A DNA stretch of 35,511 bases from Candidatus Woesearchaeota archaeon (GCA_964366925.1 CAYIVX010000003.1:1-35511); one strand, 5' to 3'; shown: positions 2,190 to 32,628, numbered from the stretch's first letter. Notes: generated by a model not told the origin, from the letters alone. A program made the numbers and translations.

Positions 2190-2190
2190 C

Positions 2191-2733
2191 ATGCTAGATA
2201 AAAAGACAATAGAAGAAGCAAGAACGAATGTTAGAAGATATCTAGACAGTGGACAATTATCACAAGAAAAATTTCAAGAAATAGTATCTCGGACATTAAT
2301 TGATAACTCTAGGGAAAGTTTAGAAACTGCTGATTTTTTAGCAAAAAATAATAAATCAAAACTTTGGATAATTGTTTGTTCTTATTATTCTATGTTTTAT
2401 ATTGCTAATGCTGTTTTATACAAATTAGGATATAAGGTAGGCGATCAAACACCTCATAAGGTGACAAGTGATGCCTTGATAGTCTATGTTAAAGATAAGC
2501 TGGGGGGTAGTTTACTTGAAAATTACCAAGAAATTAAAGAAGAAGCCTTGCTTCTTGCTCAAAATAAAGCAGAAGGATTAATAGAAAATTTTGATAAGGA
2601 AAGAGAAAAAAGAGGCAGAATTCAGTATAGAACTGAAGAAGTTGAAAAAACTGCAAAAGCTAATACTTCCTTGCAAAGAGCTAAAGAATTTGTCAAAGAA
2701 ATGGAAAAGCTTTTGATTGATTTAAACAAATAA
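2191..2733 (+). CDS. HEPN-domain protein, partner of the upstream nucleotidyltransferase
   Basis: Immediately follows the NT gene. All-helical sequence with SYYSMFYIANAVLYKLGYKVGDQTPHKVT, typical of PF05168-type HEPN. Confidence 0.65.
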   Translation: MLDKKTIEEARTNVRRYLDSGQLSQEKFQEIVSRTLIDNSRESLETADFLAKNNKSKLWIIVCSYYSMFYIANAVLYKLGYKVGDQTPHKVTSDALIVYVKDKLGGSLLENYQEIKEEALLLAQNKAEGLIENFDKEREKRGRIQYRTEEVEKTAKANTSLQRAKEFVKEMEKLLIDLNK

Positions 2734-3069: not shown

Positions 3070-4128
3070 ATGCAAAAAAGGGTGTTTTTTCTGAAGGGAA
3101 ATCAGAAGAGATTTATAGAATCTATTAGAACTATTTCTAATCTTAGTTGGAGAGACTTATCTAAAAAATTGAATATAAAAGATGGTACACTCAAATCATA
3201 TACATTTGAATTAGCTTCTATTCCTTATGAAACCTTCAAACTTATGATTAATTTAATCGATGAAAAAGAAGTAGATATTCTGAAAAAATATAATGCAAGA
3301 ATTGATGATGAAATAATGTTTATTGGCAGAAAAGTTATTGGAGAACAAAAAAAGAAGTTTGGAAATATAGATATAACCTTTACAAATAAAAATCTGGATA
3401 TCGATACCTCTAAAGTTAATTATAGTTTGGTTGATAAAAAGAAAAATATAATACTACCTAATAAAATAACTCCGGAATTAGCAGAAGAAATCGGTATGCA
3501 TTATGGGGATGGTTTCCTTTCGGCTGAAAGATACGATTATAGACTAAAGGGCAATCAATATGATGAAATAAAATATTATCAAGAATATATCCTGCCTTTG
3601 TTCAATAAGTTATATAATATACAAGTAAACTTAAAAGATTTTAAAACAAGTTATGGTTTTGAGATTACATCTAAAGCTCTATGGCAATTTAAAACAAAGA
3701 TTATGGGAATAAAACCGGGAAATAAAGAGTATATCGTCTTTCCAGAGACCCTTAAGGTGAATAATGTAGAGATCTTAACTTCATTTTTAAGAGGATTATT
3801 TGATACGGATGGAAGTTTATACTTTAAAACAAGATATGGTTATAAAAAATATTATCCTGAAATAAAATTGGAATTATTTTCTAAACAATTAATTAAAGAA
3901 GTTGGTGAAATTCTTAATATGCTTGGATTAAATCCTAATGTTTATATTAAAGAAAATGCTGGAATAATTACACTAAATGGCATAGGTTGCCTTAAGAGAT
4001 ATGAGAACTTAATTGGTTGGAGTAGCCAAAAGAATTTAAATAAGCTAAATGACTGGAAAAATAGATATTCAGAACTAAATAATGGCGGTTGTCGTCCAAT
4101 GGTTAAGACGCGAGACTGTGGCTCTTGA
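3070..4128 (+). CDS. free-standing double-motif LAGLIDADG homing endonuclease with an N-terminal HTH-like region
   Basis: Two LAGLIDADG/DOD motifs: AEEIGMHYGDGFL and LTSFLRGLFDTDGSLYF. The last ~44 nt, including the stop codon, overlap tRNA-His. Confidence 0.8.
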   Translation: MQKRVFFLKGNQKRFIESIRTISNLSWRDLSKKLNIKDGTLKSYTFELASIPYETFKLMINLIDEKEVDILKKYNARIDDEIMFIGRKVIGEQKKKFGNIDITFTNKNLDIDTSKVNYSLVDKKKNIILPNKITPELAEEIGMHYGDGFLSAERYDYRLKGNQYDEIKYYQEYILPLFNKLYNIQVNLKDFKTSYGFEITSKALWQFKTKIMGIKPGNKEYIVFPETLKVNNVEILTSFLRGLFDTDGSLYFKTRYGYKKYYPEIKLELFSKQLIKEVGEILNMLGLNPNVYIKENAGIITLNGIGCLKRYENLIGWSSQKNLNKLNDWKNRYSELNNGGCRPMVKTRDCGS

Positions 4129-4156
4129 AACGAGGGTTCGATTCCCTCCTTCCGCT
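4084..4156 (+). tRNA. tRNA-His (anticodon GTG) with an encoded G-1
   Basis: Manual cloverleaf: G-1 / GCGGTTG / TC / GTCC-AATGGTTA-AGAC / G / CGAGA-CTGTGGC-TCTTG / AAAC / GAGGG-TTCGATT-CCCTC / CTTCCGC / T. Anticodon GTG at 4118-4120. The acceptor stem has two U-U mismatches (5:68, 6:67). Confidence 0.7.
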
Positions 4157-4204
4157 TAAGTTCTGGAATCGAATGATTAAAAAAGGTAGAGAATATAATT
4201 GAAC

Positions 4205-5371
4205 ATGGCAAATGAAACAGTAAAAGGGTTTGGAGATTATGTTGGAATAGAAGCTGTGCGAAGACAGCGAATAAAAGGCATACTTGCAAATATATTCAAA
4301 ACCTATGGTTTTGAATTAAGTGAGACGCCAATAATCGAATTTGAAGAATTTGTTCGTGGAGATAATGCTAATGATGAAGCTGTTTCTGATGTTTTCAGAT
4401 TGGAAGATAAGGGTAAAAGAAAACTGGCCTTGCGTTATGAATTTACTTTTCAATTAAAAAGAATTGCTAGCAATAAAAAACTTCCTTTTAAAAGATATCA
4501 GATTGGGGAAGTTTTTAGAGACGAGCCTACTACTGGGAATAGGTTTAGGCAATTTACACAATGTGATGTGGATATTGTTGGGAGTACTATTAAAGAAGAA
4601 GCAGAGATTCTTGCTGTAGCTTCTGAAATAATGAAAGAATTGGGAATAAAGGCATCTATTTATGTTAACAATAGAAAACTTCTTAATGAAATTATGGAAG
4701 AACAGAAGATAGCTGAAAAACTCAGAAAAGATGTTATTCGTGAAGTCGATAAATTAGATAAACTTTCTGAATCGGATGTAAGGAATAATTTGAAAAAATA
4801 TAAAGCTGAAAAAATTCTAGAGATTTTTAGCAAACCAGAAAAATATTTTGAAAAATATAAATCTTACGGAGAAGTAAAAGAGTTAGAAGAATATTGTAAA
4901 ATGTATGGTGTTAAAATTAATTTTCAACCTAGTTTAGCTCGCGGATTGAGTTATTATAATGGCAGTGTTTTTGAAGTTAAAACAAATGAAATGAAAGAAA
5001 CAATTTGTGGTGGTGGAAGTTATATGGTTAATGGAATACAAGCTTCTGGAATTAGTTTTGGATTAGAAAGATTATATCAGCTTGCAAAAGTAACTATTGA
5101 CGATAGAAAAGTTTTAATTATTTCTATCGGCAAGGATAAAGAAACATTAAAATTTGCTAGTGATTTACGAGAAAAAGGCATTGCCTGTATTGTTCTTTAT
5201 GGAAAGGTTTCAAAAGCATTGGATTATGCTAATTCCTACGGAATACCCTATGCAGTTTTTGTTGGTGAAGATGAAGTAAAGAAAAAGAAATTTTTATTAA
5301 AAAATATGAAAACAGGAAAAGAAGATTTATTAAGTTCTGAACAAATTATAAATAAGCTCTGTCAGTCTTAA
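4205..5371 (+). CDS. hisS: histidine--tRNA ligase (class II)
   Basis: FRDEPTTGNRFRQFTQCDVDIVG (motif 2), CGGGSY and GISFGLERL (motif 3), and a C-terminal anticodon-binding domain. ATG at 4205 is preferred over the TTG at 4199. Confidence 0.9.
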   Translation: MANETVKGFGDYVGIEAVRRQRIKGILANIFKTYGFELSETPIIEFEEFVRGDNANDEAVSDVFRLEDKGKRKLALRYEFTFQLKRIASNKKLPFKRYQIGEVFRDEPTTGNRFRQFTQCDVDIVGSTIKEEAEILAVASEIMKELGIKASIYVNNRKLLNEIMEEQKIAEKLRKDVIREVDKLDKLSESDVRNNLKKYKAEKILEIFSKPEKYFEKYKSYGEVKELEEYCKMYGVKINFQPSLARGLSYYNGSVFEVKTNEMKETICGGGSYMVNGIQASGISFGLERLYQLAKVTIDDRKVLIISIGKDKETLKFASDLREKGIACIVLYGKVSKALDYANSYGIPYAVFVGEDEVKKKKFLLKNMKTGKEDLLSSEQIINKLCQS

Positions 5372-5582
5372 TTCTAGAAGTTATTGCAGAACGTAAGGCA
5401 AGATAATTTACTATATGATCTCCTTTAGAGGGATCTATTGTTCTAGTATTGGCCCAAATATCTCTAAGTGCATCTATTTTGGCAATAGAATGATTCATTC
5501 TTTCTTCAACACTTATTGCTAGTGTTGGGTGATGGGCTGCACTACAATCTGCAGTTTCAGTTAAACAAGATTTAATGGTCAT
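5346..5582 (-). CDS. hypothetical small protein (78 aa)
   Basis: ATG ORF with a TATA-like CTTTAAAAAC about 30 nt upstream on the minus strand. Overlaps the hisS 3' end by 26 nt. No family recognised. Confidence 0.35.
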   Translation of the reverse strand: MTIKSCLTETADCSAAHHPTLAISVEERMNHSIAKIDALRDIWANTRTIDPSKGDHIVNYLALRSAITSRIKTDRAYL

Positions 5583-5907
5583 AGCGATTCAGAAATAATA
5601 GGGGTTTTTAAAGATTTATGTTCTTGTTTTTATTTTGGCTTCGCTTATAACTTAATTATTAATAATTCACCAGACCCAATTCTTACCGTTAGATATTGTA
5701 AGTGGGCCATTAATTTCTAAACTAAACTTACGGAATAATATTAAAACTGCACAAGTTCGTTTTAAACTATCTTTATTTAATAATGTCTTAAATCAAATTC
5801 AATTGTTCAGTCTTTCTTAGCTAATTCAAGCTCCAAACTTTTGCTTCCGATTGGGTTTATTAATAAATTTTTAAAGAATAGTGTTTACGAAACTAAAATT
5901 AAGAAAT

Positions 5908-6408
5908 TTATCTCTTACCCGTCATCGCTAAAAATGCTTTTGCTTGAGCTACGAATTCTTCCATCTCAAGAATTAATTTCATTTCATACTGCTCTACTCT
6001 TTCACGGATAAGATACTTATCATAAAGAGTTCTTAGAAATTTAAGGAAAGGGGTTTTGGTCCAAGTTTCAGCATAGTCTTTATGTAAAACACATTCAACT
6101 TCTATATCCATTGCACCTTTATTCATTTTTTGCTTTACACCATCAACATCAACATCAACACTGGTCATGCCCATGGGGTGGAATTTTACTTTTAAGTAGA
6201 ATCTAAAGTAATCTGATACTTTTCTTACAGCTTCCCATTCAACTTCTATTTCTTTAGCTCCGCCTGCTTGAAGAACTTCTTTATAGGATTTCTCATTAAC
6301 ATCATAATTATGGTCTATAAGCCATTCAAAAAGAATTCTATAGGTTTCTTTGAAATCGTAGAAACCATTATGTTTAATCTTTGTTTTAATAAGTCTATCG
6401 TATTCCAT
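5908..6408 (-). CDS. hypothetical protein (166 aa)
   Basis: Long ATG ORF with composition typical of the window. No family recognised. Confidence 0.5.
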   Translation of the reverse strand: MEYDRLIKTKIKHNGFYDFKETYRILFEWLIDHNYDVNEKSYKEVLQAGGAKEIEVEWEAVRKVSDYFRFYLKVKFHPMGMTSVDVDVDGVKQKMNKGAMDIEVECVLHKDYAETWTKTPFLKFLRTLYDKYLIRERVEQYEMKLILEMEEFVAQAKAFLAMTGKR

Positions 6409-6475
6409 TTTGCTCTTTTTTCTATATTTTTATATGCTAATTGGCTATTTAAATATTATGCCCGTTTTTTTAGAA

Positions 6476-7039
6476 TTATTTAAGCTCTTTACGCATATCT
6501 CTAATAATCGCCTCTTCTTCGTAAGTGTTTACATAGCCTATTCTGGGAAGATATGGTTCTATTTGAACGTTTCCTAAATCTAGATTAATCCCTGAATAAT
6601 TTTCATTTGGTGCAATAACTACAGATTTTTTAGAATAGATTTCATAATGATTGGGATTGCAACAGCATAATAATAGTGCAGAATATTTGCCATCATTTTT
6701 ATCAATCCATTTTTGTACTGAATAAGATTTATCTTTAGAATGAAACATCCAGAACCCCTCGTCTTCTTCTTCTTCGCCGTGGGCATTAAGTATACAAATC
6801 CGTTCGTTTAATCTTTGTTTTTGTCTATTTAAATTAACAAGAGTTCTATAATTTGGATTTTTATCTAAAAAGGTAGATATTATATCTTGAGTTATAATCT
6901 CTAACGCATATTTTTTGCATCGGACATTAAGTTTTTCTTGAACTAGTTCATCTCCTTCAAAATTATCTTTAGAGAAAGCTGCATCGGGTGTAAAGAAAAG
7001 ATCTGCGGCTTTTGCTTTATGAAATCTTAGATTCATCAT
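6476..7039 (-). CDS. hypothetical protein (187 aa)
   Basis: Long ORF preceded (minus strand) by the leader hairpin at 7059-7110. Confidence 0.5.
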   Translation of the reverse strand: MMNLRFHKAKAADLFFTPDAAFSKDNFEGDELVQEKLNVRCKKYALEIITQDIISTFLDKNPNYRTLVNLNRQKQRLNERICILNAHGEEEEDEGFWMFHSKDKSYSVQKWIDKNDGKYSALLLCCCNPNHYEIYSKKSVVIAPNENYSGINLDLGNVQIEPYLPRIGYVNTYEEEAIIRDMRKELK

Positions 7040-17615: not shown

Positions 17616-17972
17616 CTAATTATAAACCAATATGTCTGTTTTTGGCACTTTATGACCTAAATCTAAAGTTAAAGGGATAGGAATATTAACAATTTGACCT
17701 TCTCGTTTAAATGTCATCATAAGCAAAACAAGAACGTTATTTGTTTTATAATTTACGGACATTTTAATGTTCTGAACTTGGTTTAAGAATTCTTTAGCTA
17801 TTCCTAAATTTTCACTAGCATCCATTATTTCTATTCCACAAATTAGATTATCCGAACTTACATCAAGAATAAAATCGCCTACATCTAAAGAAGATTTTAC
17901 TTTTTCTCCATTTGATAAGAACAATATATCATTGTCCAAATCGTAGTCTATTGTTTTAATTGTTTTTGCCAT
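17616..17972 (-). CDS. DUF2283-family protein (putative antitoxin partner)
   Basis: IDYDLDNDILFLSNG ... DFILDVSSDNLICGIEIMDAS matches the DUF2283 pattern (yD.e.D.lyi ... G.ivGiEil.as). Confidence 0.6.
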   Translation of the reverse strand: MAKTIKTIDYDLDNDILFLSNGEKVKSSLDVGDFILDVSSDNLICGIEIMDASENLGIAKEFLNQVQNIKMSVNYKTNNVLVLLMMTFKREGQIVNIPIPLTLDLGHKVPKTDILVYN

Positions 17973-18256
17973 TTCTTATTACTATTCCAAGCACTTATTA
18001 CTTTTAAACCTTTTGAAATATCAATTTCAATTATCACAACTAAGGAGTATTTGCCACTCATTTTAAACCAAAGTTTGAATCTATTCTCTACTTTGCCTTG
18101 CTCGATTTTCTCTAATCTGCTCAATTGTGATAGAAAACTTCTTATCATTCCCTCTTTTAGGGGTCTTTCTTGACTCCTTTTATAAAAATGTGAATCAAAG
18201 ATTATACTATCTTGATTTAAATTTTCAAGAAAAATCTTAACTTCTTTTAGTTCCAT
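17948..18256 (-). CDS. DUF4258-like small protein (putative toxin partner)
   Basis: DSHFYKRSQERPLKEGMI resembles the DUF4258 H-x3-R-x2-eR motif. Overlaps the downstream DUF2283 gene by 25 nt. Confidence 0.45.
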   Translation of the reverse strand: MELKEVKIFLENLNQDSIIFDSHFYKRSQERPLKEGMIRSFLSQLSRLEKIEQGKVENRFKLWFKMSGKYSLVVIIEIDISKGLKVISAWNSNKKWQKQLKQ

Positions 18257-18717: not shown

Positions 18718-19620
18718 TTAGAATCTTAAATTCTGTTCCTGCAAAAGTGCAAACAAGAATTTTAACATTGGCTCAAGATTTCCTTCAATCTGGGCTTCTT
18801 GCAAGCAATCATAATATTTTGTTTTCTTTGAGTTTGGTATGTTTATCATTGGAAATCCATTTTTATGAAGTATAAAGTTCATCAATAACCTTCCAGTTCT
18901 GCCGTTTCCATCAACGAAAGGATGAATTGTTTCAAAAGCAACATGAAAATAAGAAGCCAAGATTAGTGGATGTAGACTCTTTTTATTTCTTGAATACCAA
19001 TTTAGCAAATTGCTAATTTCTGCCGGGACTTCTTCTGGTTTAGGGGGCATCCAATTAGTTCCTTTAATATAAACTTGAAGTGTTCTGTAAATGCCTGTTT
19101 GATTTGCGAGATGTGGTTTTAATGTATCCTTAACTACAAGTTCATGCAATTTCAGGATTAACTCTTTAGTTATCTCTCCCTTATAGCTGAGTATGTAATC
19201 AAATGCTTTCTTATGGTTCAATATTTCATTTATTTCTCTTAAAGATTTTGCAGAAGGTGCTCTATTTTCAAATAAAAGACTAGCAGTTTCTTGCAGGGAG
19301 ATTGTATTTCCTTCTATGGCTGTGGAATCATAAGTAAACAGAGAACAAAATGCCTCATATCTATTCTCAAATGTTTCTTTAGGTTCTTTCTTATAATCTT
19401 GTTTTATTTTGGCTAACTTTTTTATTTCTTCTTTGTCAAGAAGATAATTTAATGCGACAAGCTTCTCATCCGCTTTCTGTTCGAATTCTTTAATTTTATT
19501 TTTTTCCAAGTCTACTCCCAAGTATACTCTTTGTTTGCTTATCTTATCCTTGTTCCTTATAGATTTAACACGATAATAATACTTTCTTCCATTAATCTCT
19601 TTTATTTCAGTATATACCAT
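18718..19620 (-). CDS. fic: Fic/DOC-family protein (putative AMPylase)
   Basis: HPFVDGNGRTGRLLMN matches the Fic motif HxFx(D/E)GNGRxxR. Confidence 0.85.
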   Translation of the reverse strand: MVYTEIKEINGRKYYYRVKSIRNKDKISKQRVYLGVDLEKNKIKEFEQKADEKLVALNYLLDKEEIKKLAKIKQDYKKEPKETFENRYEAFCSLFTYDSTAIEGNTISLQETASLLFENRAPSAKSLREINEILNHKKAFDYILSYKGEITKELILKLHELVVKDTLKPHLANQTGIYRTLQVYIKGTNWMPPKPEEVPAEISNLLNWYSRNKKSLHPLILASYFHVAFETIHPFVDGNGRTGRLLMNFILHKNGFPMINIPNSKKTKYYDCLQEAQIEGNLEPMLKFLFALLQEQNLRF

Positions 19621-19742: not shown

Positions 19743-19814
19743 TAAAAAACTTCTACGTCCCTTCGGGTTCGTGTAAAAAAGTTTTTTACATTCAGAAAAT
19801 CAAGGATTTTCTGA
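19743..19814 (+). promoter_or_regulatory. conserved two-hairpin upstream module, copy A (upstream of tfs)
   Basis: Outer stem TAAAAAACTT/AAGTTTTTTA (19743-19752 and 19779-19788) encloses CCC-ttc-GGG. Then TCAGAAAAT-caagg-ATTTTCTGA (19792-19814). A/C-rich leader to the ATG at 19842. Confidence 0.6.
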
Positions 19815-19841
19815 CTGTTCTTTTTGTTTCACAAAAACAAC

Positions 19842-23542: not shown

Positions 23543-23614
23543 TAAAAAACTTACGGTTCCCTTCGGGTTCGTGTAAAAAAGTTTTTTATATTCAGAAATT
23601 TAAGAAATTTCTGA
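23543..23614 (+). promoter_or_regulatory. conserved two-hairpin upstream module, copy B (upstream of rpl35ae)
   Basis: Near-identical to copy A over about 50 nt: TAAAAAACTT...CCCTTCGGGTTCGTGTAAAAAAGTTTTTTA. Then TCAGAAATTT-aag-AAATTTCTGA (23592-23614). Confidence 0.6.
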
Positions 23615-23653
23615 CTTTTTGTTTTGCTTAAATAAAGTAAAAACAAAACAAAT

Positions 23654-23918: not shown

Positions 23919-23991
23919 ATGAAAAATCAACTAAAAGCTTCGCTTTGGCAATACAAGATTTTTCATACTCAGAAAATCAAAGATTTTCTGA
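23919..23991 (+). promoter_or_regulatory. conserved two-hairpin upstream module, copy C (upstream of rpl10e)
   Basis: Outer stem ATGAAAAATC/GATTTTTCAT (23919-23928 and 23957-23966). Inner AAAGC-ttc-GCTTT (23934-23946). TCAGAAAAT-caaag-ATTTTCTGA (23969-23991). Confidence 0.6.
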
Positions 23992-24019
23992 TTCTTCGCT
24001 ACAAGAGGTGTAGCTTCAG

Positions 24020-25167: not shown

Positions 25168-28100
25168 GTGGTTATTAAAAAGAGAATGGACGAGATTAGT
25201 GCATCTGGCAAATATGTTAAATGGCTTTCTGAATTATCCAAGGATAGCGGAAGTGTTGCTGGTGGAAAGGGTGCGAATCTTGCAGAAATGTATAATTCTG
25301 GTTTTCCTGTGCCTCCTGCATTTTGCATAACTGCTCAGGCTTTTGATGCCTATCTCGTGGCTGCTGGATTAAAAGCAGAAATTAATAGAATAATAAAAGA
25401 TACAGACATAGATAATACTAAAGAGTTAGATGTTAATGCTAAAAAAATTCGTGAGATAATAACTAAGTCTGAAATGCCTGAAGAAATGAGTGAAGAGATT
25501 ATAGAAGCTTATGAAATACTTAGTACAGACCAAGAAGTTAAAAAAGCAGAATCTAGATTTGTTGTTTCCAAGAGTGCATTAGATATTTTAAAGAATAGTC
25601 ATGAGTCGGTTTTTGTTGCAGTTCGTTCATCTGCTACTACTGAAGATTTGGCTACTGCAAGTTTTGCAGGACAGCAAGATACTTATACAAATATTAAGGG
25701 AAATAAAGAATTAATTCTTGCTGTAAAAAAATGTTTTGCTTCACTTTATACTGCTAGGGCCGTTTACTATAGAAAGAAAAAAGGATTCAAGGAAGGCGAA
25801 GCTTTACTTTCAGTAACTGTTCAAAAAATGGTTAATTCTGATAAGTCAGGGGTTGTTTTTACTAAAAATCCTGTAAGTGGTGCTAATGAGATTATTATGG
25901 AAGCTGTTTTTGGACTTGGTGAGGGAATTGTTTCTGGAAAAATAAAACCAGACCATTATGTTATTAATCCTGATTTAGATATTGTAGAAAAAAAGATAGC
26001 TGATAAAAAAGTAGCAATAGTAAGACAAGCAGATGGTGAAGAAAAAACCGTGACTCTTACTCCTGAGAAGAGTAAGCAACAGGTTATGAGTGATGCTGAA
26101 ATAAAAAGTTTAGCTTATACTGTTCAGAAAATAGAAGAGCATTATAAGAAACCCCAAGATATTGAATTTGCAGTAGAGACAGGAAGAATTTTTATTGTTC
26201 AATCAAGGCCAGTAACTACGATTGAAAAAAGCAGTGCTATTAAGAAACAAATACTTTCTGGAAATGTTTTATTATCGGGAATGCCTGCTTCGCCTGGAGT
26301 TGCTTTTGGACCTGTTAAATTAGTTCATACTTTGGATGACCTTGAAAAGATTATGAAGGGAGACATTCTTGTTACTAAAATGACTAATCCAGATATGGTC
26401 GTGGCTATGCAAAGATGTTCTGCGATAATTACTGACGAAGGCGGGGCTACTGCTCATGCTGCGATAGTTTCTAGGGAAATGGGAATTCCGTGTTTTTCTG
26501 GAGATACAATAATAATGACTGACAAAGGATTTATTAATTTGGCTGATGCAAATAATAGAATTTTAAACGGAGAAATAATACACACGCTTAGTTTTGATAT
26601 TCAAAAATTGAAAACTGAATGGAAACAAATATTAAATACAAGCAAAAGACAATCGCCTACAATAACTATTTCAGCATCTAAAAATGGGCAAGTAGAATGG
26701 AATACCCTAACGACTACTCCTGAACATAAATTTTTCAGCTTTGAAAGTCGTGTGCCCTGTTATAAAAAAATAAACGAAATACTTGCAAATGAGAGCATAA
26801 TTTATTCTGCTAATAAAATGCCTATCTTGCCTCAAATTTTAACAATTAATCCGCAAAAAGCATATACTTGTGGAGCTATTTTTTCAGATGGTTATTTAAG
26901 AATAAAAAAGGGTGGTGGAGGTTCTACAGTATTTGCACAGAAATCAACACCACAAAAAATGGAATTTATTAATGAAGTATGCAAAAATTTTGAAAATGTT
27001 TATGATTATAAGCTAAGATGGGTTAGACCTTCTTATTACTATTGTTATAGCAAAAAAATAACTGAAGACTTGTTAAACATTTATGACAATATTAATAAAA
27101 TTATTTTGGGATTGGATGAATATTCTATCATCAAATATCTTGCTTCTATTATTGATGGCGATGGAAATTTTATAGAAAGAGGCAAGGTAATCAAAATAAG
27201 CATTGATGCTAAAGATGTAAATCTCCTTCAATCTTTGGTTTTAAGTTGCATGAGACTTGGATTAAATTATAGAATTCGAAAAGAAGATAATCAATTTAGA
27301 TTCTATATAACTTCTGGAATAGAAAAATTAAAACCCTATCTAAAAAGAGTTATCGTGACTAATTATGAAAAAACAACGGGAGATACTTATTTTTCAGCTA
27401 AACATCTTTTTTTAGATATACCTATATGTGGCAGAAAAGGTATAAAATCTTTTGTTAAGAATAATTGTTTATTATCTGAAAGAGAAATTGCTGAAAAAAT
27501 AATACCATTCGTAAAAGACAATAGTTTAAGAGAAACTCTTTCAAAATTTGTAAATTCAAATATCGGGGCATTGAGGGTTAAAAAAATATCAGATAATGCT
27601 GTTGAAGATGTTTATAACATTGAAGTAGCAGATAATAATAATTATATTGTTTTTACTAAACTATTAACACCTTTAATAGTAAAGAATTGTGTTGTCGCAA
27701 CAGAAACTGCTACGCAAACACTCAAAGATGGACAAATAGTTACTGTTGATGGAAGTGGGGGGAAAGTTTATGATGGAAAGGTTGAAGAAAAAATTGCAGA
27801 GGGAGTAAAAGAAATATTGCCTATTGTTAGAGGTACTAAAACTAAGATTAAAGTGATGGTTGATTTGCCTTCTTTTGCTGAAAGGGCTGCTAAATCTCAA
27901 GCAGATGCAGTAGGATTAATGCGACTTGAGGGTATTATCGCTGAAAGTGGAAAGCATCCATTGTATTATGTTAAAAATGGCAATCCCCATGAATATAGAG
28001 ATGTTATTGAAGATGGTGTTTCAAAAATATCTAAACACTTTAAAGAAATTTGGGTAAGAACTTCAGATATTCGAACTGATGAATTTAGGCATTTAAAGGG

Positions 28101-28953
28101 TGCTCCTGCTGAAGTTGAAGTTAATCCCATGCTTGGATTTCACGGTATAAGATTTAGTTTGAAAAATATTCCTATTATGGAAGCAGAAATTGAAGCTGTA
28201 AGTAGGGTAGCTGAAAAAAATCCAACTAAAAAGTTTGGACTTATGTTTCCCCAAGTAATAAGTGAAGAAGAAATGGCTGAAGCATATAAAATTTATAAAA
28301 AATTCCAAAAACCAAATCTTATTATTGGAACAATGATTGAAACTCCTGCGGCTGTTCAAGTTATTCGTGGAATATGTAAGTATGCTAAATTTATTAGTTT
28401 TGGAACAAATGATTTAACTCAATTTACACTTGCTATTGATAGAGGCAATGCAGAATGCCAGTATATGTATAATGAGATGCATCCTGCAATTTTATCACAA
28501 CTTCGCCGAGTTATTGATGTTTGCAAAGAATATAAAGTTGAAACTTCGATTTGCGGACAGGCTGGCTCAAAAAAAGAAATGGTTGAATTTCTCGTTCGTC
28601 AGGGTATTGATTCTATTAGTGTTAATGCTGATATGGCACATGATATTAGCCAATATGTGTTAGAGTTAGAAACTAAATTAAAAAGTCAGGGGAATAAGAA
28701 TAATAATCCCTCAAAAAAACCTAGTGTTCTTCCTGTTGATGACATGTCTGAAATAGAAGAAAAAGAAAATGAGAAAGTAGCAGATGTTGAAAAGAGAAAG
28801 ATGGTGCATCTTCATCGCAAGGATTCAAAAACAGAAGTTGTGGAAGAAAAAGAAAGTGCTGAAGAAGAGAAGGAAGATAACGATAATAAAAAAGAAGCCG
28901 AAGAATATCCTGTTTTTGAGATAGGCTTTGACCCGTTTAAAGAAGTTAGGTGA
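25168..28953 (+). CDS. ppsA: phosphoenolpyruvate synthase (pyruvate, water dikinase) interrupted by an in-frame intein; acidic/Lys-rich C-terminal extension
   Basis: GGKGANLAEM; the ATP-grasp N-domain; phospho-His region ITDEGGATAHAAIVSREMGIP; and the C-terminal PEP-utilising TIM barrel (GLMRLEG, MIETPAA, FGTNDLTQ). The start is a GTG at 25168, with an alternative ATG at 25186. Confidence 0.92.
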   Translation: MVIKKRMDEISASGKYVKWLSELSKDSGSVAGGKGANLAEMYNSGFPVPPAFCITAQAFDAYLVAAGLKAEINRIIKDTDIDNTKELDVNAKKIREIITKSEMPEEMSEEIIEAYEILSTDQEVKKAESRFVVSKSALDILKNSHESVFVAVRSSATTEDLATASFAGQQDTYTNIKGNKELILAVKKCFASLYTARAVYYRKKKGFKEGEALLSVTVQKMVNSDKSGVVFTKNPVSGANEIIMEAVFGLGEGIVSGKIKPDHYVINPDLDIVEKKIADKKVAIVRQADGEEKTVTLTPEKSKQQVMSDAEIKSLAYTVQKIEEHYKKPQDIEFAVETGRIFIVQSRPVTTIEKSSAIKKQILSGNVLLSGMPASPGVAFGPVKLVHTLDDLEKIMKGDILVTKMTNPDMVVAMQRCSAIITDEGGATAHAAIVSREMGIPCFSGDTIIMTDKGFINLADANNRILNGEIIHTLSFDIQKLKTEWKQILNTSKRQSPTITISASKNGQVEWNTLTTTPEHKFFSFESRVPCYKKINEILANESIIYSANKMPILPQILTINPQKAYTCGAIFSDGYLRIKKGGGGSTVFAQKSTPQKMEFINEVCKNFENVYDYKLRWVRPSYYYCYSKKITEDLLNIYDNINKIILGLDEYSIIKYLASIIDGDGNFIERGKVIKISIDAKDVNLLQSLVLSCMRLGLNYRIRKEDNQFRFYITSGIEKLKPYLKRVIVTNYEKTTGDTYFSAKHLFLDIPICGRKGIKSFVKNNCLLSEREIAEKIIPFVKDNSLRETLSKFVNSNIGALRVKKISDNAVEDVYNIEVADNNNYIVFTKLLTPLIVKNCVVATETATQTLKDGQIVTVDGSGGKVYDGKVEEKIAEGVKEILPIVRGTKTKIKVMVDLPSFAERAAKSQADAVGLMRLEGIIAESGKHPLYYVKNGNPHEYRDVIEDGVSKISKHFKEIWVRTSDIRTDEFRHLKGAPAEVEVNPMLGFHGIRFSLKNIPIMEAEIEAVSRVAEKNPTKKFGLMFPQVISEEEMAEAYKIYKKFQKPNLIIGTMIETPAAVQVIRGICKYAKFISFGTNDLTQFTLAIDRGNAECQYMYNEMHPAILSQLRRVIDVCKEYKVETSICGQAGSKKEMVEFLVRQGIDSISVNADMAHDISQYVLELETKLKSQGNKNNNPSKKPSVLPVDDMSEIEEKENEKVADVEKRKMVHLHRKDSKTEVVEEKESAEEEKEDNDNKKEAEEYPVFEIGFDPFKEVR
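26491..27687 (+). mobile_element. 399-aa intein with a LAGLIDADG homing-endonuclease domain inside ppsA
   Basis: Starts CFSGDTIIM directly after REMGIP. Has TTPEHKF (block B), GAIFSDGYL and LASIIDGDGNF (DOD motifs), and VYNIEVADNNNYIV (block F). Ends IVKN, followed by the +1 Cys (CVVATE). Confidence 0.88.
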
Positions 28954-28965
28954 TTAAGATAGGGA
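28918..28965 (+). repeat. junction repeat copy A (the real ppsA 3' end plus the HepT-1 stop region)
   Basis: gagataggctttgacccgtttaaagaagttaggtgattaagataggga. Confidence 0.7.
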
Positions 28966-29367
28966 CTTATTTATTTGAGCTATGAATTCTTCGATATCTG
29001 CTCTAAATTCTTCTTTAAGTGCATAGAAAACTTTAGCATTGTCTATTTCACCATATCTATGTGCAATAAAGTTTCGCATGCCTCTAAGATCTATCATCTT
29101 TTGACATAAATCATAAGAAATTATCTTATTTTCTGCTAATATTTTAAAAGTGCTCTCGTCATTATTTGGAATTCTGAATTTTTTAAATCTGATAAAATAT
29201 AGTGCAATTTCAACTACATATTCACTTATTACTTCAAAATTATTCTGACAAGCGGCTCTTGTTTTTCCATCGGCTTCATAATCGTCATATTCTTCAGGAA
29301 GCCAACTATAAATCTCTTCTAACAGATTTTCAATATCTTTTATTTTCTCTTTTATTCTTTTTTCCAT
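28954..29367 (-). CDS. hepT: HepT-like HEPN/DUF86 toxin (cassette 1)
   Basis: GMRNFIAHRYGEID carries the R-x4-H HEPN motif of DUF86. Overlaps the upstream MNT gene by 16 nt. Confidence 0.8.
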   Translation of the reverse strand: MEKRIKEKIKDIENLLEEIYSWLPEEYDDYEADGKTRAACQNNFEVISEYVVEIALYFIRFKKFRIPNNDESTFKILAENKIISYDLCQKMIDLRGMRNFIAHRYGEIDNAKVFYALKEEFRADIEEFIAQINKSLS

Positions 29368-29855
29368 ATTGTTTTGCCTTTGCTGTCTATCTCTTTTTTA
29401 ATTTTATTTGGGAGAATATTATAAACTTGTATATCTATTTTGTCTGGAAGTTTTCCTAAACAATTAATGCGAAATTCTGTAACTTCTTTTTGTGATATTT
29501 CCGAAAATGTAACTGCAAGATCTATATCGGATTTGTATGTCAATGTATTTTCAGCAGCAGAACCATATAAGATAATTCTTTTTATTTTTGAAAAATATTT
29601 GCTTTCTAAAATAATTTCTTTTGCATTTTCTATTCTTTCTTTCAGAAATTTTCCCCTTTTTAATTCAAAATCGTCTTTAAAATTGGCAAGTATCCCTATA
29701 ATTTCAAATTTTTTTCTTATATCTCTTGAGAGACGGGTTTGCTCGGAAGCTGTTAACTTTATTCCATTTAGCTGTTTGTCAATTATTTCTATTTCTTTTT
29801 TTCCAAATATCTTTCGTGCATCTTTATTGGTTTTCAGGGCATTTAATAAGTTCAT
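29352..29855 (-). CDS. mntA: MntA-like nucleotidyltransferase antitoxin with an extra N-terminal ~60-aa domain (cassette 1)
   Basis: LYGSAAENTLTYKSDIDLAV is the NT motif. The N-terminal segment ...LTASEQTRLSRDIRKKFE is conserved with cassette 2. Confidence 0.8.
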   Translation of the reverse strand: MNLLNALKTNKDARKIFGKKEIEIIDKQLNGIKLTASEQTRLSRDIRKKFEIIGILANFKDDFELKRGKFLKERIENAKEIILESKYFSKIKRIILYGSAAENTLTYKSDIDLAVTFSEISQKEVTEFRINCLGKLPDKIDIQVYNILPNKIKKEIDSKGKTIWKKE

Positions 29856-29883
29856 TTTTCAGTTTATCTCCATAAGTTTTTCT

Positions 29884-29920
29884 TATCACTATTATGATAA
29901 AATATATCACTATTATGATA
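29884..29920 (-). promoter_or_regulatory. two phased TATCA-N6-TGATA palindromes (operator-like) between the TATA box and the MNT-1 start
   Basis: TATCACTATTATGATA at 29884-29899 and again at 29905-29920, 21-bp phasing. Minus-strand TATA TTTAAATA at 29930-29937. Confidence 0.55.
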
Positions 29921-29944
29921 TATTTTAACTATTTAAAGCTTTCT

Positions 29945-29992
29945 GAGATAGCTTTTGATCCTTTTCAAGAAGTTAGGTGATTAAGATAGAGA
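29945..29992 (+). repeat. junction repeat copy B (non-coding copy of the ppsA 3' end)
   Basis: gagatagcttttgatccttttcaagaagttaggtgattaagatagaga. 42/48 positions identical to copy A in my manual alignment. Confidence 0.7.
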
Positions 29993-30421
29993 TTTCTTTA
30001 TTTTTTCTAAAAATTCTTCAGAGTCTTTAACTATTTCTTCTGAAAATGCGTGCAAAACAATAGAATCATCAACAGTAATATAATTATGGACTATTCTATT
30101 TCGCATATCTTTTGCATCTTTTAATCTTTTGGCGAATTCTTCAGAGATAACTCCGTTCTTGAAAAGAATAAAGAATGCATGCTCTTCATCCTCTGGCTGT
30201 TTAAGATTCTTATATCTTATTAAAAGAAGAGTTAGACTTATTATGGTTTCAATAATCTTCTCAAAATATCTTTCACATGCAGCCTTTAGCTGAATATCTT
30301 GTCTATATTGTTCTAGCTCGGGAATTTCAAACCTTTCGAATTCTTCTAAGTATTTTTCTAACTCTGCTATCTTTTCATCTATTCTGTTCTTGATAGTTAA
30401 TCTTTTTTGTTGTTCATTCAT
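29981..30421 (-). CDS. hepT: HepT-like HEPN/DUF86 toxin (cassette 2)
   Basis: DMRNRIVHNYITVD carries the R-x4-H motif. 4-nt overlap with the upstream MNT gene. Confidence 0.8.
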   Translation of the reverse strand: MNEQQKRLTIKNRIDEKIAELEKYLEEFERFEIPELEQYRQDIQLKAACERYFEKIIETIISLTLLLIRYKNLKQPEDEEHAFFILFKNGVISEEFAKRLKDAKDMRNRIVHNYITVDDSIVLHAFSEEIVKDSEEFLEKIKKSLS

Positions 30422-30921
30422 TTTCTTTCGTATAATAACTTGCCATTCTTATCAATCTGTTTTTTTATCTTTTCTGGAAGTATATTATATACCTGAAGGT
30501 CTAACTTTCCCGAGAATATTCCACCAATTCGTGAACAAAAGGTTAGAGCAGTTTTTTCATCAATCTTGTCAAAATCTACAGCAATATCAATATCTGACAT
30601 TAATGTTTGTTCATTTTCAGCTGTTGAGCCAAATAATAGGATTCTCCTAATGCTTGGAAAAAGTTCAGTTTGCTTTATTCTTTCCAAGGTTTCATTTATA
30701 ATGCGCTTTTTCTCTTCACTTCGTTTTAGTCCAAATTCCTCCTTGTATTCAGAAAGTTCTTTGATTGCTTCAAATTTCTTTCTTATATCTCTGGAAAGTC
30801 TTACTCTCTCGGAAGGCTCGAGTCTAACTCCTCTAAGTTGTTTTTCAATTATCTTTAGCTCTCGCTTTCCAAATAATCTTCTTATATTTTCATTATTTTT
30901 AATTGAGTTTAGTAAGCTCAT
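30418..30921 (-). CDS. mntA: MntA-like nucleotidyltransferase antitoxin with an N-terminal extra domain (cassette 2)
   Basis: LFGSTAENEQTLMSDIDIAV. The start is set at MSLLNS (30921) by alignment with cassette 1; the track ORF extends to 30954. Confidence 0.78.
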   Translation of the reverse strand: MSLLNSIKNNENIRRLFGKRELKIIEKQLRGVRLEPSERVRLSRDIRKKFEAIKELSEYKEEFGLKRSEEKKRIINETLERIKQTELFPSIRRILLFGSTAENEQTLMSDIDIAVDFDKIDEKTALTFCSRIGGIFSGKLDLQVYNILPEKIKKQIDKNGKLLYERK

Positions 30922-30945
30922 ATTCAGTATCTTATTATAAATTGT

Positions 30946-30982
30946 TATCATCATAGTGATAACAATTATCCTAATTATGATA
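30946..30982 (-). promoter_or_regulatory. two phased TATCA-N6-TGATA palindromes upstream of MNT-2
   Basis: TATCATCATAGTGATA (30946-30961) and TATCCTAATTATGATA (30967-30982). Same 21-bp phasing as cassette 1. Minus-strand TATA at 30992-30999. Confidence 0.55.
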
Positions 30983-31006
30983 ATAAAGAACTATTTAAAG
31001 GTTTTG

Positions 31007-31043
31007 GAGGGGTAGAATCTGTTTTGAAGGAGTTAAGTGATTT
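31007..31043 (+). repeat. junction repeat copy C (degenerate)
   Basis: gaggggtagaatctgttttgaaggagttaagtgatt aligns with the 3' two-thirds of copies A and B, with a 1-nt indel. Confidence 0.5.
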
Positions 31044-31057
31044 TACTAAATATTTAT

Positions 31058-32527
31058 CTAAAAATCTCTTTCTTTATTTCCGTACCAATCATATCTATTT
31101 CCTATTTTATCTAAACCAGCACCAACTAATCCACCTGCAACTGCTCCAAATAATCCCCATAAAAATAATCTATGCCATCGAAACATATCCATATTAAATC
31201 CTTCTTTAATATTAGCTGAATACCAAGATTCTACTGTTTTAATTATTGCTTTTTGAGCTTCTTTTGGATTAATGCTTGTTCCTGTTGCTTTAATTTCAGT
31301 TAGAGAATGAACATAATCATCTAAGGATTTTTTTAAACCAGGTACTTGTGAACTAACTTGATTTATTCCACCCATAATTTCAGATATTCCGCTTTCTAGA
31401 TTTTTTGTTTGAGATTTAATTTCATTAATTCTTTGATATTCACTTGGTCCAGAATCTGAACGAGAATTTGTATCATATTGAACACTTTTAGCTGTTGCTT
31501 TTGCAGACTGCCAAGTTGCATTCATAGTAGGAATATTTTCAACAGCAGAAGTTATTCTATCTTTATTTTGGTTATAAGTTGATCCGTGATTCCAAGTATT
31601 AACTAAATCTGATATTTCTCCTTTGCTTAACTTTGGAACTTTCTCTCCTTTTGTTCTACTTATTACAATTGCATCCTGATTAGGCTGATTAATTTTCTTT
31701 ACTCTAGATAAAACTTGTGGCCAGGCTAAATATTCTTTATTATTTTTTAATTCTCCAAGTAAAGCAGAAGTCTTTTCTCCATTTTCTGGATGATAGTTAT
31801 AAGTATGGGTTGTATGATCGTAAACTGATCTTGTTTTCAAAACTTGCCTCGAGTGACTAACTGTATGTCTATTATCTCCAGATCCGTCTGTAGTGGTATA
31901 ATTTTCCGTATCCCAATAAGTTTCTGTTCTATAATGATCTTGATGCTCTGTCGTCCATGTCGCATCTAATTCTCGATTAAGAGTTTGAATTAATGAAATA
32001 TTTTTAGTATATCCTTCCATTGTTTTTGAAGCATTTTCAGCTAACATTGGCATTTGTTCTAAAAGGTCGGTAATGGTGTAGGTGTGTTGTGAACCATAAT
32101 TAGAATCCTTAACCATTCTTTCCCCGAGTTGTTTAGCAAATTCACGTGAATTATCTTTAGTTTCATTTGCCCAAGAATTATTCCAAGCTTCAAGAGTTTT
32201 CATAGTAACATCATTAACTTTAGCATAATACTGCGTCATGGCTCCAACTTCTTTTCCTTCGGCTTTTGCTTGTTTTTCAAGTTGACTAATCTCAGAAAAT
32301 GCTAATGGAATTTTATGGCTTCTTTGCACTTCGTTACTGTAAGCAAGCATTGTTGCACAAACTGCTCCTGCAGTTCCTATTAAGAAAGCTTCGATTGGAG
32401 TATCTCTTAAAAGGGTTTTAACTTTACGACCACATTTACTTAGAATTGATTCGGGAGAGGGATATCTAATATTTCCACTATCGCTGTATCTTTGTGTAGC
32501 TTTTGTTTCATTATTCATAAAAATCAT
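31058..32527 (-). CDS. hypothetical membrane-anchored protein (489 aa; TM segments near both termini)
   Basis: Hydrophobic segments IEAFLIGTAGAVCATMLAY and LFLWGLFGAVAGGLVGAGL. The Thr/Asn/His/Trp-rich central region is unlike the neighbours. Confidence 0.55.
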   Translation of the reverse strand: MIFMNNETKATQRYSDSGNIRYPSPESILSKCGRKVKTLLRDTPIEAFLIGTAGAVCATMLAYSNEVQRSHKIPLAFSEISQLEKQAKAEGKEVGAMTQYYAKVNDVTMKTLEAWNNSWANETKDNSREFAKQLGERMVKDSNYGSQHTYTITDLLEQMPMLAENASKTMEGYTKNISLIQTLNRELDATWTTEHQDHYRTETYWDTENYTTTDGSGDNRHTVSHSRQVLKTRSVYDHTTHTYNYHPENGEKTSALLGELKNNKEYLAWPQVLSRVKKINQPNQDAIVISRTKGEKVPKLSKGEISDLVNTWNHGSTYNQNKDRITSAVENIPTMNATWQSAKATAKSVQYDTNSRSDSGPSEYQRINEIKSQTKNLESGISEIMGGINQVSSQVPGLKKSLDDYVHSLTEIKATGTSINPKEAQKAIIKTVESWYSANIKEGFNMDMFRWHRLFLWGLFGAVAGGLVGAGLDKIGNRYDWYGNKERDF

Positions 32528-32628
32528 ACAAGTATCTTGTTTTTAAATCTTCCTATTTTGTTACTACCCCCTAGATACACCAAAACGTAAGGTTTAAATA
32601 GTAGTTTTGCTTGTATAAATTACTAAAA

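Follow-up and report, generated by a model that had tools for sequence, protein, structure and literature searches.

How did the end of one gene come to stand three times around two toxin-antitoxin operons? The locus lies in a window of 35,511 nt (the whole stretch analysed, from a Candidatus Woesearchaeota archaeon, GCA_964366925.1 CAYIVX010000003.1:1-35511). The gene is ppsA (25168..28953, plus strand), which encodes a PEP synthase of 1261 aa with the Pfam domains PPDK_N, PEP-utilizers and PEP-utilizers_C. It contains a LAGLIDADG intein (nt 26491-27687; Intein_splicing, LAGLIDADG_3) whose borders were placed by comparison with the intein-less ppsA of a relative, L005. The PEP-utilizers_C domain stops at residue 1164, beyond which a K/E-rich extension of ~97 aa runs to the terminus ...EYPVFEIGFDPFKEVR*. 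This tail motif is conserved in relatives (P0001-P0004, L002 and L005).

Two cassettes on the minus strand follow ppsA, and they encode only MNT and HepT. Cassette 1 comprises HepT1 (28954..29367), a HEPN-family RNase toxin of 137 aa with the motif RNFIAH (PF01934 E=7e-21; NF047751 78 bits), and MNT1 (29352..29855), a nucleotidyltransferase antitoxin of 167 aa with GSx10DID (PF18765/PF01909). Cassette 2 comprises HepT2 (29981..30421; 146 aa, RNRIVH; PF01934 E=1e-23; NF047751 84 bits) and MNT2 (30418..30921; 167 aa from the second ATG, GSx10DID; PF18765/PF01909). The order is MNT then HepT, with gene overlaps of 16 nt (MNT1/HepT1) and 4 nt (MNT2/HepT2).

The promoter of cassette 1 (29884..29937, minus strand), as read from the sequence, has two putative operators, TATCACTATTATGATA palindromes at 29884-29899 and 29905-29920, and a TTTAAATA box on the minus strand at 29930-29937. 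That of cassette 2 (30945..30999, minus strand) has putative operators TTATCATCATAGTGATAA (30945-30962) and TTATCCTAATTATGATAA (30966-30983) and the same box at 30992-30999; the 68-nt repeat D2 matches the promoter of cassette 1 at 71% identity. The operator/TATA layout recurs in homologous form across the cassette family. The first-pass annotation had ascribed HepT, MNT, operators and a TATA box to each unit, and the domain and motif matches, operator pairs and boxes bear this out.

In type VII HepT/MntA systems the toxin is a HEPN RNase that is adenylylated by an MNT nucleotidyltransferase antitoxin. The cassettes resemble these in passing the HepT_toxin cut-off, in the Rx4H and GSx10DxD motifs, in the Polbeta/NTP_transf_2 domains and in the overlapping MNT-then-HepT order: both HepTs carry Rx4H and exceed the cut-offs of NF047751 and PF01934, and both MNTs exceed those of PF18765/PF01909. 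They differ in that the MNTs, at 43.3 (MNT1) and 49.1 bits (MNT2), fall below the 60-bit NCBIfam cut-off (used for both type VII HepT, NF047751, and MntA, NF047752) of the MntA equivalog NF047752, and in an extra N-terminal domain of ~85 aa, which is conserved across about 800 DPANN proteins. By sequence MNT1 and MNT2 thus belong to a divergent MNT subfamily marked by this additional domain, and the cassettes are predicted type VII (MNT-HepT) toxin-antitoxin modules.

A 48-nt repeat at the ppsA end had been noted at the outset, and alignment of 28918-28965 with 29945-29992 reproduces its 42/48 identical positions exactly. Its content, the ppsA tail and the HepT stop, was correctly described, but its extent was not: a repeat search of the window gives a direct repeat of 80 nt (28913-28992 versus 29940-30019, 83% identical, spacing 1027), made of the last 41 nt of ppsA and the last 39 nt of HepT, and so reaching into the HepT coding sequence at its 3' end. 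In the window the 21-mer GAAGTTAGGTGATTAAGATAG is present at exactly two places, against an expectation of 0.01, and the first two junction copies share a 23-nt stretch without mismatch, AAGAAGTTAGGTGATTAAGATAG.

Copy A (28913..28992), the functional copy, consists of the last 41 nt of ppsA with its TGA (28913-28953) and the last 39 nt of HepT1 with its TAA (28954-28992). Copy B (29940..30019) joins a ppsA pseudo-tail (...EIAFDPFQEVR*) to the true HepT2 3' end. When changes are polarised with L005 and L002 as outgroups, copy B is the carrier of the non-synonymous ones (GGC>GCT, AAA>CAA), and the change in copy A (CCT>CCG) is synonymous. Copy C (31007..31045), apparently the earliest of the ppsA tails and the one furthest decayed, is still joined to native downstream DNA and occupies the homologous position, just past the TATA end of cassette 2. 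It contains GGAGTTAAGTGATT at 31029-31042 with 2/14 mismatches, and its core (31021-31042) is 18/21 identical to copy B, a score equalled by none of 1000 shuffles. Copy C, which the first-pass annotation had listed as a third, degraded copy, is on this evidence a real but weak repeat. It ends in AAG-TGA, the K-type of the relatives L005 and L002; A and B share AGG (R).

The same arrangement is present in two independent assemblies (L001 and L075) and in Logan contigs from two runs; it is no assembly artefact.

Global alignment of the two cassette units gives 57% identity overall. Per 48-nt window, identity is 0.88 at the junction and 0.81 in the next window, and ranges from 0.40 to 0.73 in the remainder. 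Because of this profile the junction must be regarded as far better conserved than the cassette genes, as first proposed (83-88% versus 57%), and the divergence as non-uniform.

One reading offered for this pattern was that tail and cassette were duplicated in tandem once, long ago, and that gene conversion or selection has since kept the junction similar. The units are indeed homologous over their full length and in the same order, and the L078 lineage has a tandem pair, 69% identical, which may be a true duplication. The proteins of the window speak otherwise. Identity is 39% between the HepTs and 49% between the MNTs, each MNT finds relatives at 60-61% among other DPANN groups of phylum level, and the mutual similarity of MNT1 and MNT2 ranks only 58-59th of 63 in the family. 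The two cassettes, MNTs and HepTs alike, are by these comparisons not sister copies. Three tail copies surround two units, C is of the K-type and A and B of the R-type, and in L002 a single Fic gene is enclosed by the same tail duplication. We reject this reading, the non-sister cassettes and the Fic cassette both telling against it, and rate it very improbable.

The HepT 3' ends depart from the rest of the genes: over their last 42 nt HepT1 and HepT2 share 74% identity, ranking 5th of 1596 family pairs, and the C-terminus KSLS* is found only in these two within the family. Such sharing fits a duplicated block that included the HepT 3' end.

In the relatives compared, the ppsA 3' flank holds 0, 1 or 2 cassettes, and these differ in kind. 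In L005 the site is empty and only one ppsA tail is present. L002 has the Fic cassette, non-homologous to MNT-HepT, with a tail copy on either side, the two matching at 93% over 45 nt; the duplicated tail is at least 54 nt there and about 41 nt in the window. Other, unrelated genes follow ppsA in L007-L010, and in a distant Pacearchaeote, L071, the same cassette family overlaps or abuts the ppsA stop codon. A 489-aa ORF of unassigned function (31058..32527, minus strand) also belongs to the variable region; it has no homologue at the ppsA site in any relative compared, and no repeat was detected flanking it. After each insertion an intact PpsA C-terminus is retained, as had been claimed, with its clade-conserved motif. 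Because the cassettes are non-sister and the site varies among relatives, the sequence comparison bears out the suggested hot spot, a ppsA 3' flank of variable content, and supports serial, independent insertions, the newest adjoining ppsA.

Of the original proposal of serial site-specific insertion, the serial part stands and the defined att-like site does not. Such a site in the ppsA tail would call for an enzyme whose gene lies elsewhere in the genome, whether a tyrosine recombinase, a serine recombinase or one of Xer-like type. Its reuse in the window, L002 and L071 would be natural, as would the perfect 23-nt stretch in A and B, and the tail contains GTTAGGT/GTTAAGT, a match by eye to the integron core consensus GTTRRRY. 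However, no recombinase or transposase domain was found among ORFs of at least 90 aa or end fragments in the 35-kb window, so the nearby tyrosine or serine recombinase that had been suggested is missing from the ORFs searched. The junctions form no hairpin (single-stranded fold z-scores of -0.7 to +0.9 versus shuffles, with junctions A and B folded on either strand and the L002 junctions on one), and the repeat search of the window gave no inverted repeat pairing the cassette termini. The extents of the repeats also differ between HepT/MNT and Fic cassettes.

Other members of the family weigh further against an att-like site. Significant flanking direct repeats (z 6-31) occur at 8-9 of 56 cassettes versus 1 of 160 geometry-matched controls. 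Elsewhere in DPANN these repeats are 20-72 nt long and copied from the local gene end: the 5' end of the CCA-adding enzyme, AP_endonuc_2 or transketolase gene, the 3' end of the aEF-1beta gene or a TrmB-family gene, or the sequence 3' of a PALP enzyme gene. They are wholly different between loci and share no motif. The duplications have no fixed length (20, about 30-34, 41-43, 54, 72 and 80 nt). Cassette ends are imprecise: on the promoter side they lie 0-47 nt upstream of the TATA box, on the toxin side between -38 and +41 nt relative to the HepT stop, so that HepT is sometimes truncated; in L062 and L015 its C-terminus and stop codon are supplied by the duplicated target sequence. Stacks with repeated junctions recur in L030, L045/L051 and L078, and comparison of L078 with L084 places the extra cassette again beside a housekeeping gene. 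Because the family repeats are unrelated and locally derived, the repeat is better read as a target duplication than as a conserved recombination site, and we give an att-like site in ppsA little credence. The gene-end duplication scar is, by the same comparisons, a general feature of this family in DPANN genomes and is shared by some other cassettes there, which favours a process making a long, variable duplication over a dedicated att site.

The duplication need not have been made on insertion. In a Campbell-type pop-in, a circular cassette carrying an orthologous gene end, acquired on looping out of another lineage, would enter by a single crossover within the 40-80-nt tail; the same tail-cassette-tail layout of direct repeats would result, a dedicated recombinase would be needless, and the use of one site in three genomes would be accounted for. 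Differences between repeat copies point the same way: 23/31 fall at third codon positions (P = 6e-4; we would expect a share of 0.44 if a single copy were decaying), 18/27 codon changes are synonymous, and in-frame indels occur in L039 (9 nt) and L002. This suggests that some pseudo-copies diverged under coding constraint, and the third-position bias and the L039 indel are expected if the cassette brought a gene-end copy from another lineage. The Q of copy B (EIAFDPFQEVR) occurs in real PpsA tails, those of P0003 and P0004, but its A does not, these tails having S there. Where outgroups exist (the window and L002), the polarised changes fit simple decay of a pseudo-copy. Pop-in also leaves unexplained the HepT2-like 3' end of HepT1 and the derived AGG shared by A and B while C keeps AAG. 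No population variant, excision product or circular form was seen in the contigs, a search of low power at a depth of only 3-6x. Above all, pop-in needs a prior event creating tail-cassette-tail at each of many genes, so that a target-duplicating insertion is required anyway. We consider it unlikely, though the coding signal lends it some weight.

Our preferred reading, which we hold to be probable on balance, is that imprecise toxin-antitoxin fragments of ~1 kb insert at gene ends and duplicate 20-80 nt of the target. The ppsA 3' end of this very small DPANN (Nanoarchaeota-type) archaeon from groundwater would have been entered twice, independently, by fragments of about 1 kb, each a predicted self-regulated MNT-HepT (type VII) operon. 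The ancestor would have resembled L005, with ppsA ending in ...FDPFKEVK* and followed by spacer DNA. Cassette 2 would then have entered directly after the ppsA stop, duplicating at least 38 nt of the tail, and the distal copy, C, would have lost function and decayed. After a shift of the working tail from K to R, cassette 1 would have entered at the same point, duplicating 80 nt (41 nt of ppsA and 39 nt of HepT2); this would leave B as a pseudo-copy, A as the working tail and HepT1 ending in HepT2-derived codons. We infer both the order of events and the enzymology from sequence. The duplication might arise, for example, where a widely staggered break receives an imprecisely ended fragment and the gaps are filled in. 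Against this reading, we know of no enzyme in archaea that makes target duplications of 20-80 nt, and for ~85% of the 56 cassettes no flanking repeat is detectable. Because one tail copy stays on the gene body, the conserved PpsA C-terminal peptide would survive, and the cassettes may persist because a toxin-antitoxin pair resists loss.

Extended to other genes, this would mean that DPANN archaea gain genes when short DNA fragments insert at either end, 5' or 3', of a housekeeping gene and duplicate 20-80 nt of the target, with no known recombinase or with an enzyme yet to be described, a generalization that we put forward only tentatively. If true, the host gene stays whole, repeated insertions pile toxin-antitoxin and defence cassettes into integron-like stacks, and duplicated gene ends can donate start or stop codons to incoming genes. 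The scar suggests an undescribed, recombinase-less addition of genes that does not break the neighbouring gene.

Several known systems share part of this layout. Integron cassette arrays are rich in toxin-antitoxin genes, and like the stack at ppsA they have cassettes of about 1 kb, a recurring short separator and one fixed entry end, so that the newest cassette is proximal. Unlike them, the window has no IntI among its ORFs, its junctions do not fold, its separator is a copy of a host gene end and no attC, and its cassettes have their own promoters and operators. Chromosomal integron cassette arrays are known, archaeal integrons included (PMC9668308). Transposons and casposons duplicate target sequence directly on both sides of the insert, but those of casposons measure 13-14 bp and go together with terminal inverted repeats and a casposase (PMC8464041), whereas those described here are 20-80 nt and variable, with neither inverted termini nor a transposase.

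IMEX, integrase-less elements that exploit Xer/dif, are likewise small, lack their own recombinase and stack at one chromosomal site; the site here is the 3' end of a coding sequence and lacks a dif-like palindrome, and the repeats vary by locus. Similar in outline are the archaeal SSV/pTN3-type elements and the Prochlorococcus tycheposons, which target the 3' end of tRNA or protein genes, rebuild the gene and accrete in tandem. As at ppsA, gene-end direct repeats flank the insert, the gene stays intact, and entry is serial, the newest element nearest the gene and the older repeats decaying. They differ from the cassettes described here, which have 1-kb cargo, no integrase in or near them, imprecise ends and repeats of 20-80 nt at many unrelated sites, each with its local repeat. 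The classic tRNA 3'-end version of the gene-end repeat is found in L018.

The first-pass annotation had described two MNT-HepT cassettes behind ppsA whose junctions repeat the last 48 nt or so of that gene. Comparison of 28918-28965 with 29945-29992 gives the same 42 of 48 identical positions, and the repeat was refined to 80 nt at 83% identity between copies A (28913-28992) and B (29940-30019). A 21-mer across both stop codons occurs exactly twice in the window (0.01 expected) and has zero exact matches among GTDB species genomes; a degenerate tail pattern matched only the H43-bin036_1 contig, a related metagenome contig (L005) and, by chance, a high-GC contig (L004). The two units are 57% identical overall in global alignment, and the identity in 48-nt windows reaches 0.88 and 0.81 at the junction versus 0.40-0.73 elsewhere, so that the junction is better conserved than the cassette genes, as had been claimed. 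The degraded third copy, C (31007-31045), is weak but significant for its position: its core (31021-31042) is identical to B at 18 of 21 positions, and 0 of 1000 shuffles score as well. A similar stretch at ~32530, past the 489-aa gene, was rejected as a fourth copy, being native flank that is present at the empty site of L005. The arrangement is reproduced in two independent assemblies (L001 and L075) and in Logan contigs, and exact-protein look-ups with HepT1, HepT2 and MNT1 returned the same arrangement only.

The window is a whole 35.5-kb contig (31% G+C) from Hainich groundwater well H43, 0.1-µm fraction; its nearest GTDB genome, labelled Nanoarchaeota archaeon H43-bin036_1, has a ppsA 85% identical in nucleotides. 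The window ppsA (25168-28953) encodes a complete PEP synthase split by a LAGLIDADG intein (nt 26491-27687), whose 399 aa carry homing-endonuclease domains and interrupt the protein at GIP|C. The intein is missing from the closely related L005 ppsA (864 aa) and from that of the Pacearchaeote L071, and is therefore polymorphic in the clade. The PpsA catalytic domain ends at residue 1164 (Pfam) and is followed by a K/E-rich linker of ~97 aa closing in EYPVFEIGFDPFKEVR before the stop; residues ~1165-1261 (28663-28953) thus comprise a linker and a short peptide, FEI(G/S)FDPF in close and LDIF in distant DPANN relatives. Since C-termini of relatives at 58-89% identity read (E/Y)(F)PxFEI(G/S)FDPF and those of more distant relatives end in LDIF, the tail is a conserved C-terminal peptide in the clade and not junk read-through; the terminal peptide resembles a docking motif (putative). 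The 117-aa low-complexity tail alone gave no matches as a protein query, and the search was redone with the last 400 aa.

Judged from their sequence, both units are type VII toxin-antitoxin operons of the minus strand, each complete in itself (HepT1 28954-29367 and MNT1 29352-29855; HepT2 29981-30421 and MNT2 30418-30921) and with a putative promoter made of a TTTAAATA box and two palindromic operators (TATCAnnAnTATGATA). The MNTs are 167 aa long, with the motif GSx10DID and an N-terminal extension of ~85 aa, and are overlapped by the HepTs, with the motif Rx4H. Both HepTs exceed the NCBIfam equivalog cut-off, and the MNTs fall under theirs (43-49 versus 60 bits). At E<=1e-40 the MNT subfamily numbers 794 proteins, with members in Woese-, Pace-, Nano-, Aenigm- and Micrarchaeota; no relative was found in IMG/VR viral contigs, and hence nothing points to a virus or plasmid as vector. 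Identity is 39% between HepT1 and HepT2 and 49% between MNT1 and MNT2; MNT2 ranks only 58-59 in similarity to MNT1 among 63 other family members, and other DPANN genomes encode relatives 60-61% identical to each MNT, the HepTs behaving likewise. Because the two cassettes are as distant as copies from different phyla-level groups, they arrived separately. Tandem duplication of one cassette, which had been offered as an alternative, was rejected on these ranks and on the closer relatives elsewhere in DPANN.

Comparison with relatives indicates that the ppsA 3′ flank is an insertion hot spot, as had been proposed. The left flank (L35Ae, L16, ppsA) is conserved, and so is the right, which comprises the ‘MALDD’ gene and genes for a 146-aa membrane protein, a 271-aa NTase and AP_endonuc_2; the interval between them varies. 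In L005 it is empty, with a 254-nt spacer and a single tail; in the related locus L002 ppsA is followed by a Fic gene, a second ppsA tail (93% over 45 nt, translation EKYPVFEIGFDPFKEVK, stop lost) and a 172-aa gene; and four further relatives (L009, L008, L007 and L010) carry four different unrelated genes. L071, with a ppsA 59% identical and a tail ending in EVLDIF, has an MNT-HepT of the same family whose stop codon overlaps the ppsA stop. As a same-site insertion this is counted as suggestive only, because one such coincidence would be expected by chance at roughly 5% (a rough estimate) given the 55 loci examined. Serial capture with a regenerated ppsA tail, as first described, holds. Around the start of the Fic cassette in L002 (2334-2450) lie three copies of TTACCTTTTTGGCAG(G/T)AAA, probably the operators of an autoregulated Fic gene.

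The dedicated att-like site that had been suggested is not borne out. Integrase, transposase and Cas1 were all missing from Pfam scans of window ORFs of at least 90 aa and of end fragments, as was the nearby tyrosine or serine recombinase for which a search had been suggested; the junctions have no hairpin potential on folding (z -0.7 to +0.9), and an Rfam scan of the window gave three tRNAs and nothing else. The repeat has no constant extent, the duplicated stretch of ppsA being about 41 nt for the HepT/MNT cassettes and 54 nt or longer for the Fic cassette, and no shared motif or inverted termini were seen at cassette ends when junctions aligned across loci were read by eye. Casposon duplications are 13-14 bp and accompany inverted termini (PMC8464041), and archaeal integrons need attC hairpins and IntI (PMC9668308). 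In its entry at one end, its newest cassette proximal and its recurring separator, the window locus resembles an integron array or the tandem accretion of elements at att sites, but it departs from both in what defines them, having neither recombinase nor attC fold and separators that are locus-specific. The junction does not look like a fixed att site.

A similar scar recurs elsewhere. The comparison that decided against a fixed site took all family members in GTDB genomes and set the 450 nt preceding MNT against 260 nt around the HepT stop. Of 56 cassettes, 8-9 are flanked by direct repeats (z = 6-31); among 160 geometry-matched random positions only 1 is. These repeats, 20-72 nt long, differ at every locus and are the ends of an adjoining gene. 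Gene starts supply them in L011 (14 codons of a CCA-adding enzyme), in L039 (an AP_endonuc_2 gene) and in L051 and L045 (transketolase). Gene 3′ ends do so in L015 (17 codons of aEF-1beta, with the stop of the neighbour), in L062 (a TrmB-family gene) and in L012 (a lipoyl synthase-like gene without Pfam match, named from its C-terminal sequence only), and in L030 the source is the 3′ flank of a PALP enzyme gene. The cassettes end imprecisely, from 0 to 47 nt upstream of the TATA box and from -38 to +41 nt around the HepT stop, and in L062 and L015 the final HepT codons and stop are supplied by the duplicated target. The insertion scar, a duplicated gene end, is thus recurrent in DPANN genomes, where it surrounds cassettes without an integrase at many housekeeping genes; full-text literature searches found no description of such cassettes with 20-80-nt gene-end duplications in DPANN.

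Stacks recur as well. L030, a second array of the window's kind, has a VapBC-like pair, an MNT-HepT and another two-gene pair, separated by three copies of its 43-nt repeat (4889-4931, 5909-5951, 6620-6662). Several cassettes lie between copies of the transketolase 5′ end (KSTREGYG) in L045 (7247-7276, 8952-9019, 10301-10380) and L051 (1611-1650, 2623-2662). One lineage seen in several metagenomes (L078-L083) has two MNT-HepT cassettes before a NUDIX gene (5001-6927); its relative L084 (340-1238) has the distal one only, the extra cassette adjoining the housekeeping gene, as in the window. Other repeats were met on the way. A 450-aa ORF of L045 begins with the duplicated transketolase start codon and ends in a copy of the last 13 codons of the adjoining AlbA_2-like gene. 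In L018 a 52-nt repeat (589-640 and 3427-3476, 96%), a tRNA 3′ end plus a GC-rich hairpin, surrounds an MNT-HepT and three more genes, with no integrase-sized ORF between the copies. The only strong match in the random-position control, a 104-nt direct repeat in L042 (6463-6566 and 7404-7507, 85%) around ~840 nt, may mark another cassette of this kind.

Copy C ends AAG-TGA-TT, matching L005 and L002; in A and B alike a derived AGG-TGA runs into the HepT end. Over their last 42 nt HepT1 and HepT2 are 74% identical, fifth among 1596 family pairs (all higher pairs are close orthologues), and the two alone in the family end in KSLS. The simplest history would have cassette 2 enter directly after the ppsA stop, duplicating at least 38 nt, of which the leftover, C, decayed; the working ppsA tail would then have changed K to R; and cassette 1 would have entered at the same point, duplicating 80 nt (ppsA tail plus HepT2 3′ end), so that A works, B is a pseudo-tail and the HepT1 C-terminus was copied from HepT2. 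Polarised by outgroups, A has one synonymous change and B the non-synonymous GGC>GCT and AAA>CAA, which fits decay of a pseudo-copy.

These polarised changes, in the window and in L002, the derived AGG common to A and B and the HepT2-like end of HepT1 lead us to lean towards an insertion process that creates the target duplication, for example when a widely staggered break is filled in around an imprecisely ended fragment. A circular cassette already bearing a gene-end copy might instead integrate by a single homologous crossover. Differences between copies fall at third codon positions in 23 of 31 cases (P = 6e-4 versus the 0.44 expected under free decay of one copy), and indels in L039 and L002 are in frame, both of which speak for this route, but ordinary recombination importing diverged alleles into the working gene could also be the source of the third-position bias. 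Neither deletion joints (A-B or A-C) nor circular junctions turned up in Logan contigs from three groundwater runs, with little power to detect them at a depth of 3-6x and in contigs, which drop rare variants. The crossover requires an earlier target-duplicating event at every new gene anyway, which further favours duplication by insertion, and we consider the crossover route the less likely of the two.

DPANN archaea have tiny, tightly packed genomes, and to our knowledge their uptake of accessory genes without wrecking essential ones is poorly understood. Where there is almost no spacer, presumably only insertions that spare their neighbours survive, as a long target duplication at a gene end would do, and an addictive toxin-antitoxin pair would resist later deletion. 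The ppsA locus offers a clean, datable series from empty site to one cassette to two. If insertion makes the duplication, it would be an undescribed type of long target-site duplication; if cassettes bring the copy, lineages would naturally exchange toxin-antitoxin modules by pop-in and pop-out. Under either mechanism the scar is a signature by which recent gene gain can be searched for in uncultured archaea, and it accounts for toxin-antitoxin modules piling up beside conserved genes.

Other accessory-type genes of the window (1617-2733, 3070-4128, 17616-18256, 18718-19620) include a second MNT/HEPN pair, a free-standing LAGLIDADG ORF that runs into tRNA-His (4084-4157), a DUF2283 two-gene pair and a Fic protein; no gene-end repeats were detected flanking them. 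Upstream of the ‘MALDD’ gene, a ~60-nt intergenic segment (32542-32601) lies between inverted CTATTTAAA/TTTAAATAG boxes; it is 90% identical but inverted in L002 (3065-3124), keeps the window's orientation in L005 and L009, and might act as a promoter segment that can invert or encode a small RNA. An element of ~94 nt with two hairpins (GTGTAAAAAAGTTTTTTAC, CAGAAAATCAAGGATTTTCTG) and no Rfam match occurs three times (19743-19836, 23543-23636, 23938-23997), each just upstream of a gene (for a TFIIS-type Zn-ribbon protein, L35Ae and L16/L10e); with a similar pair in L008 (130-236 and 5945-6048), it may be a common leader or regulatory element.
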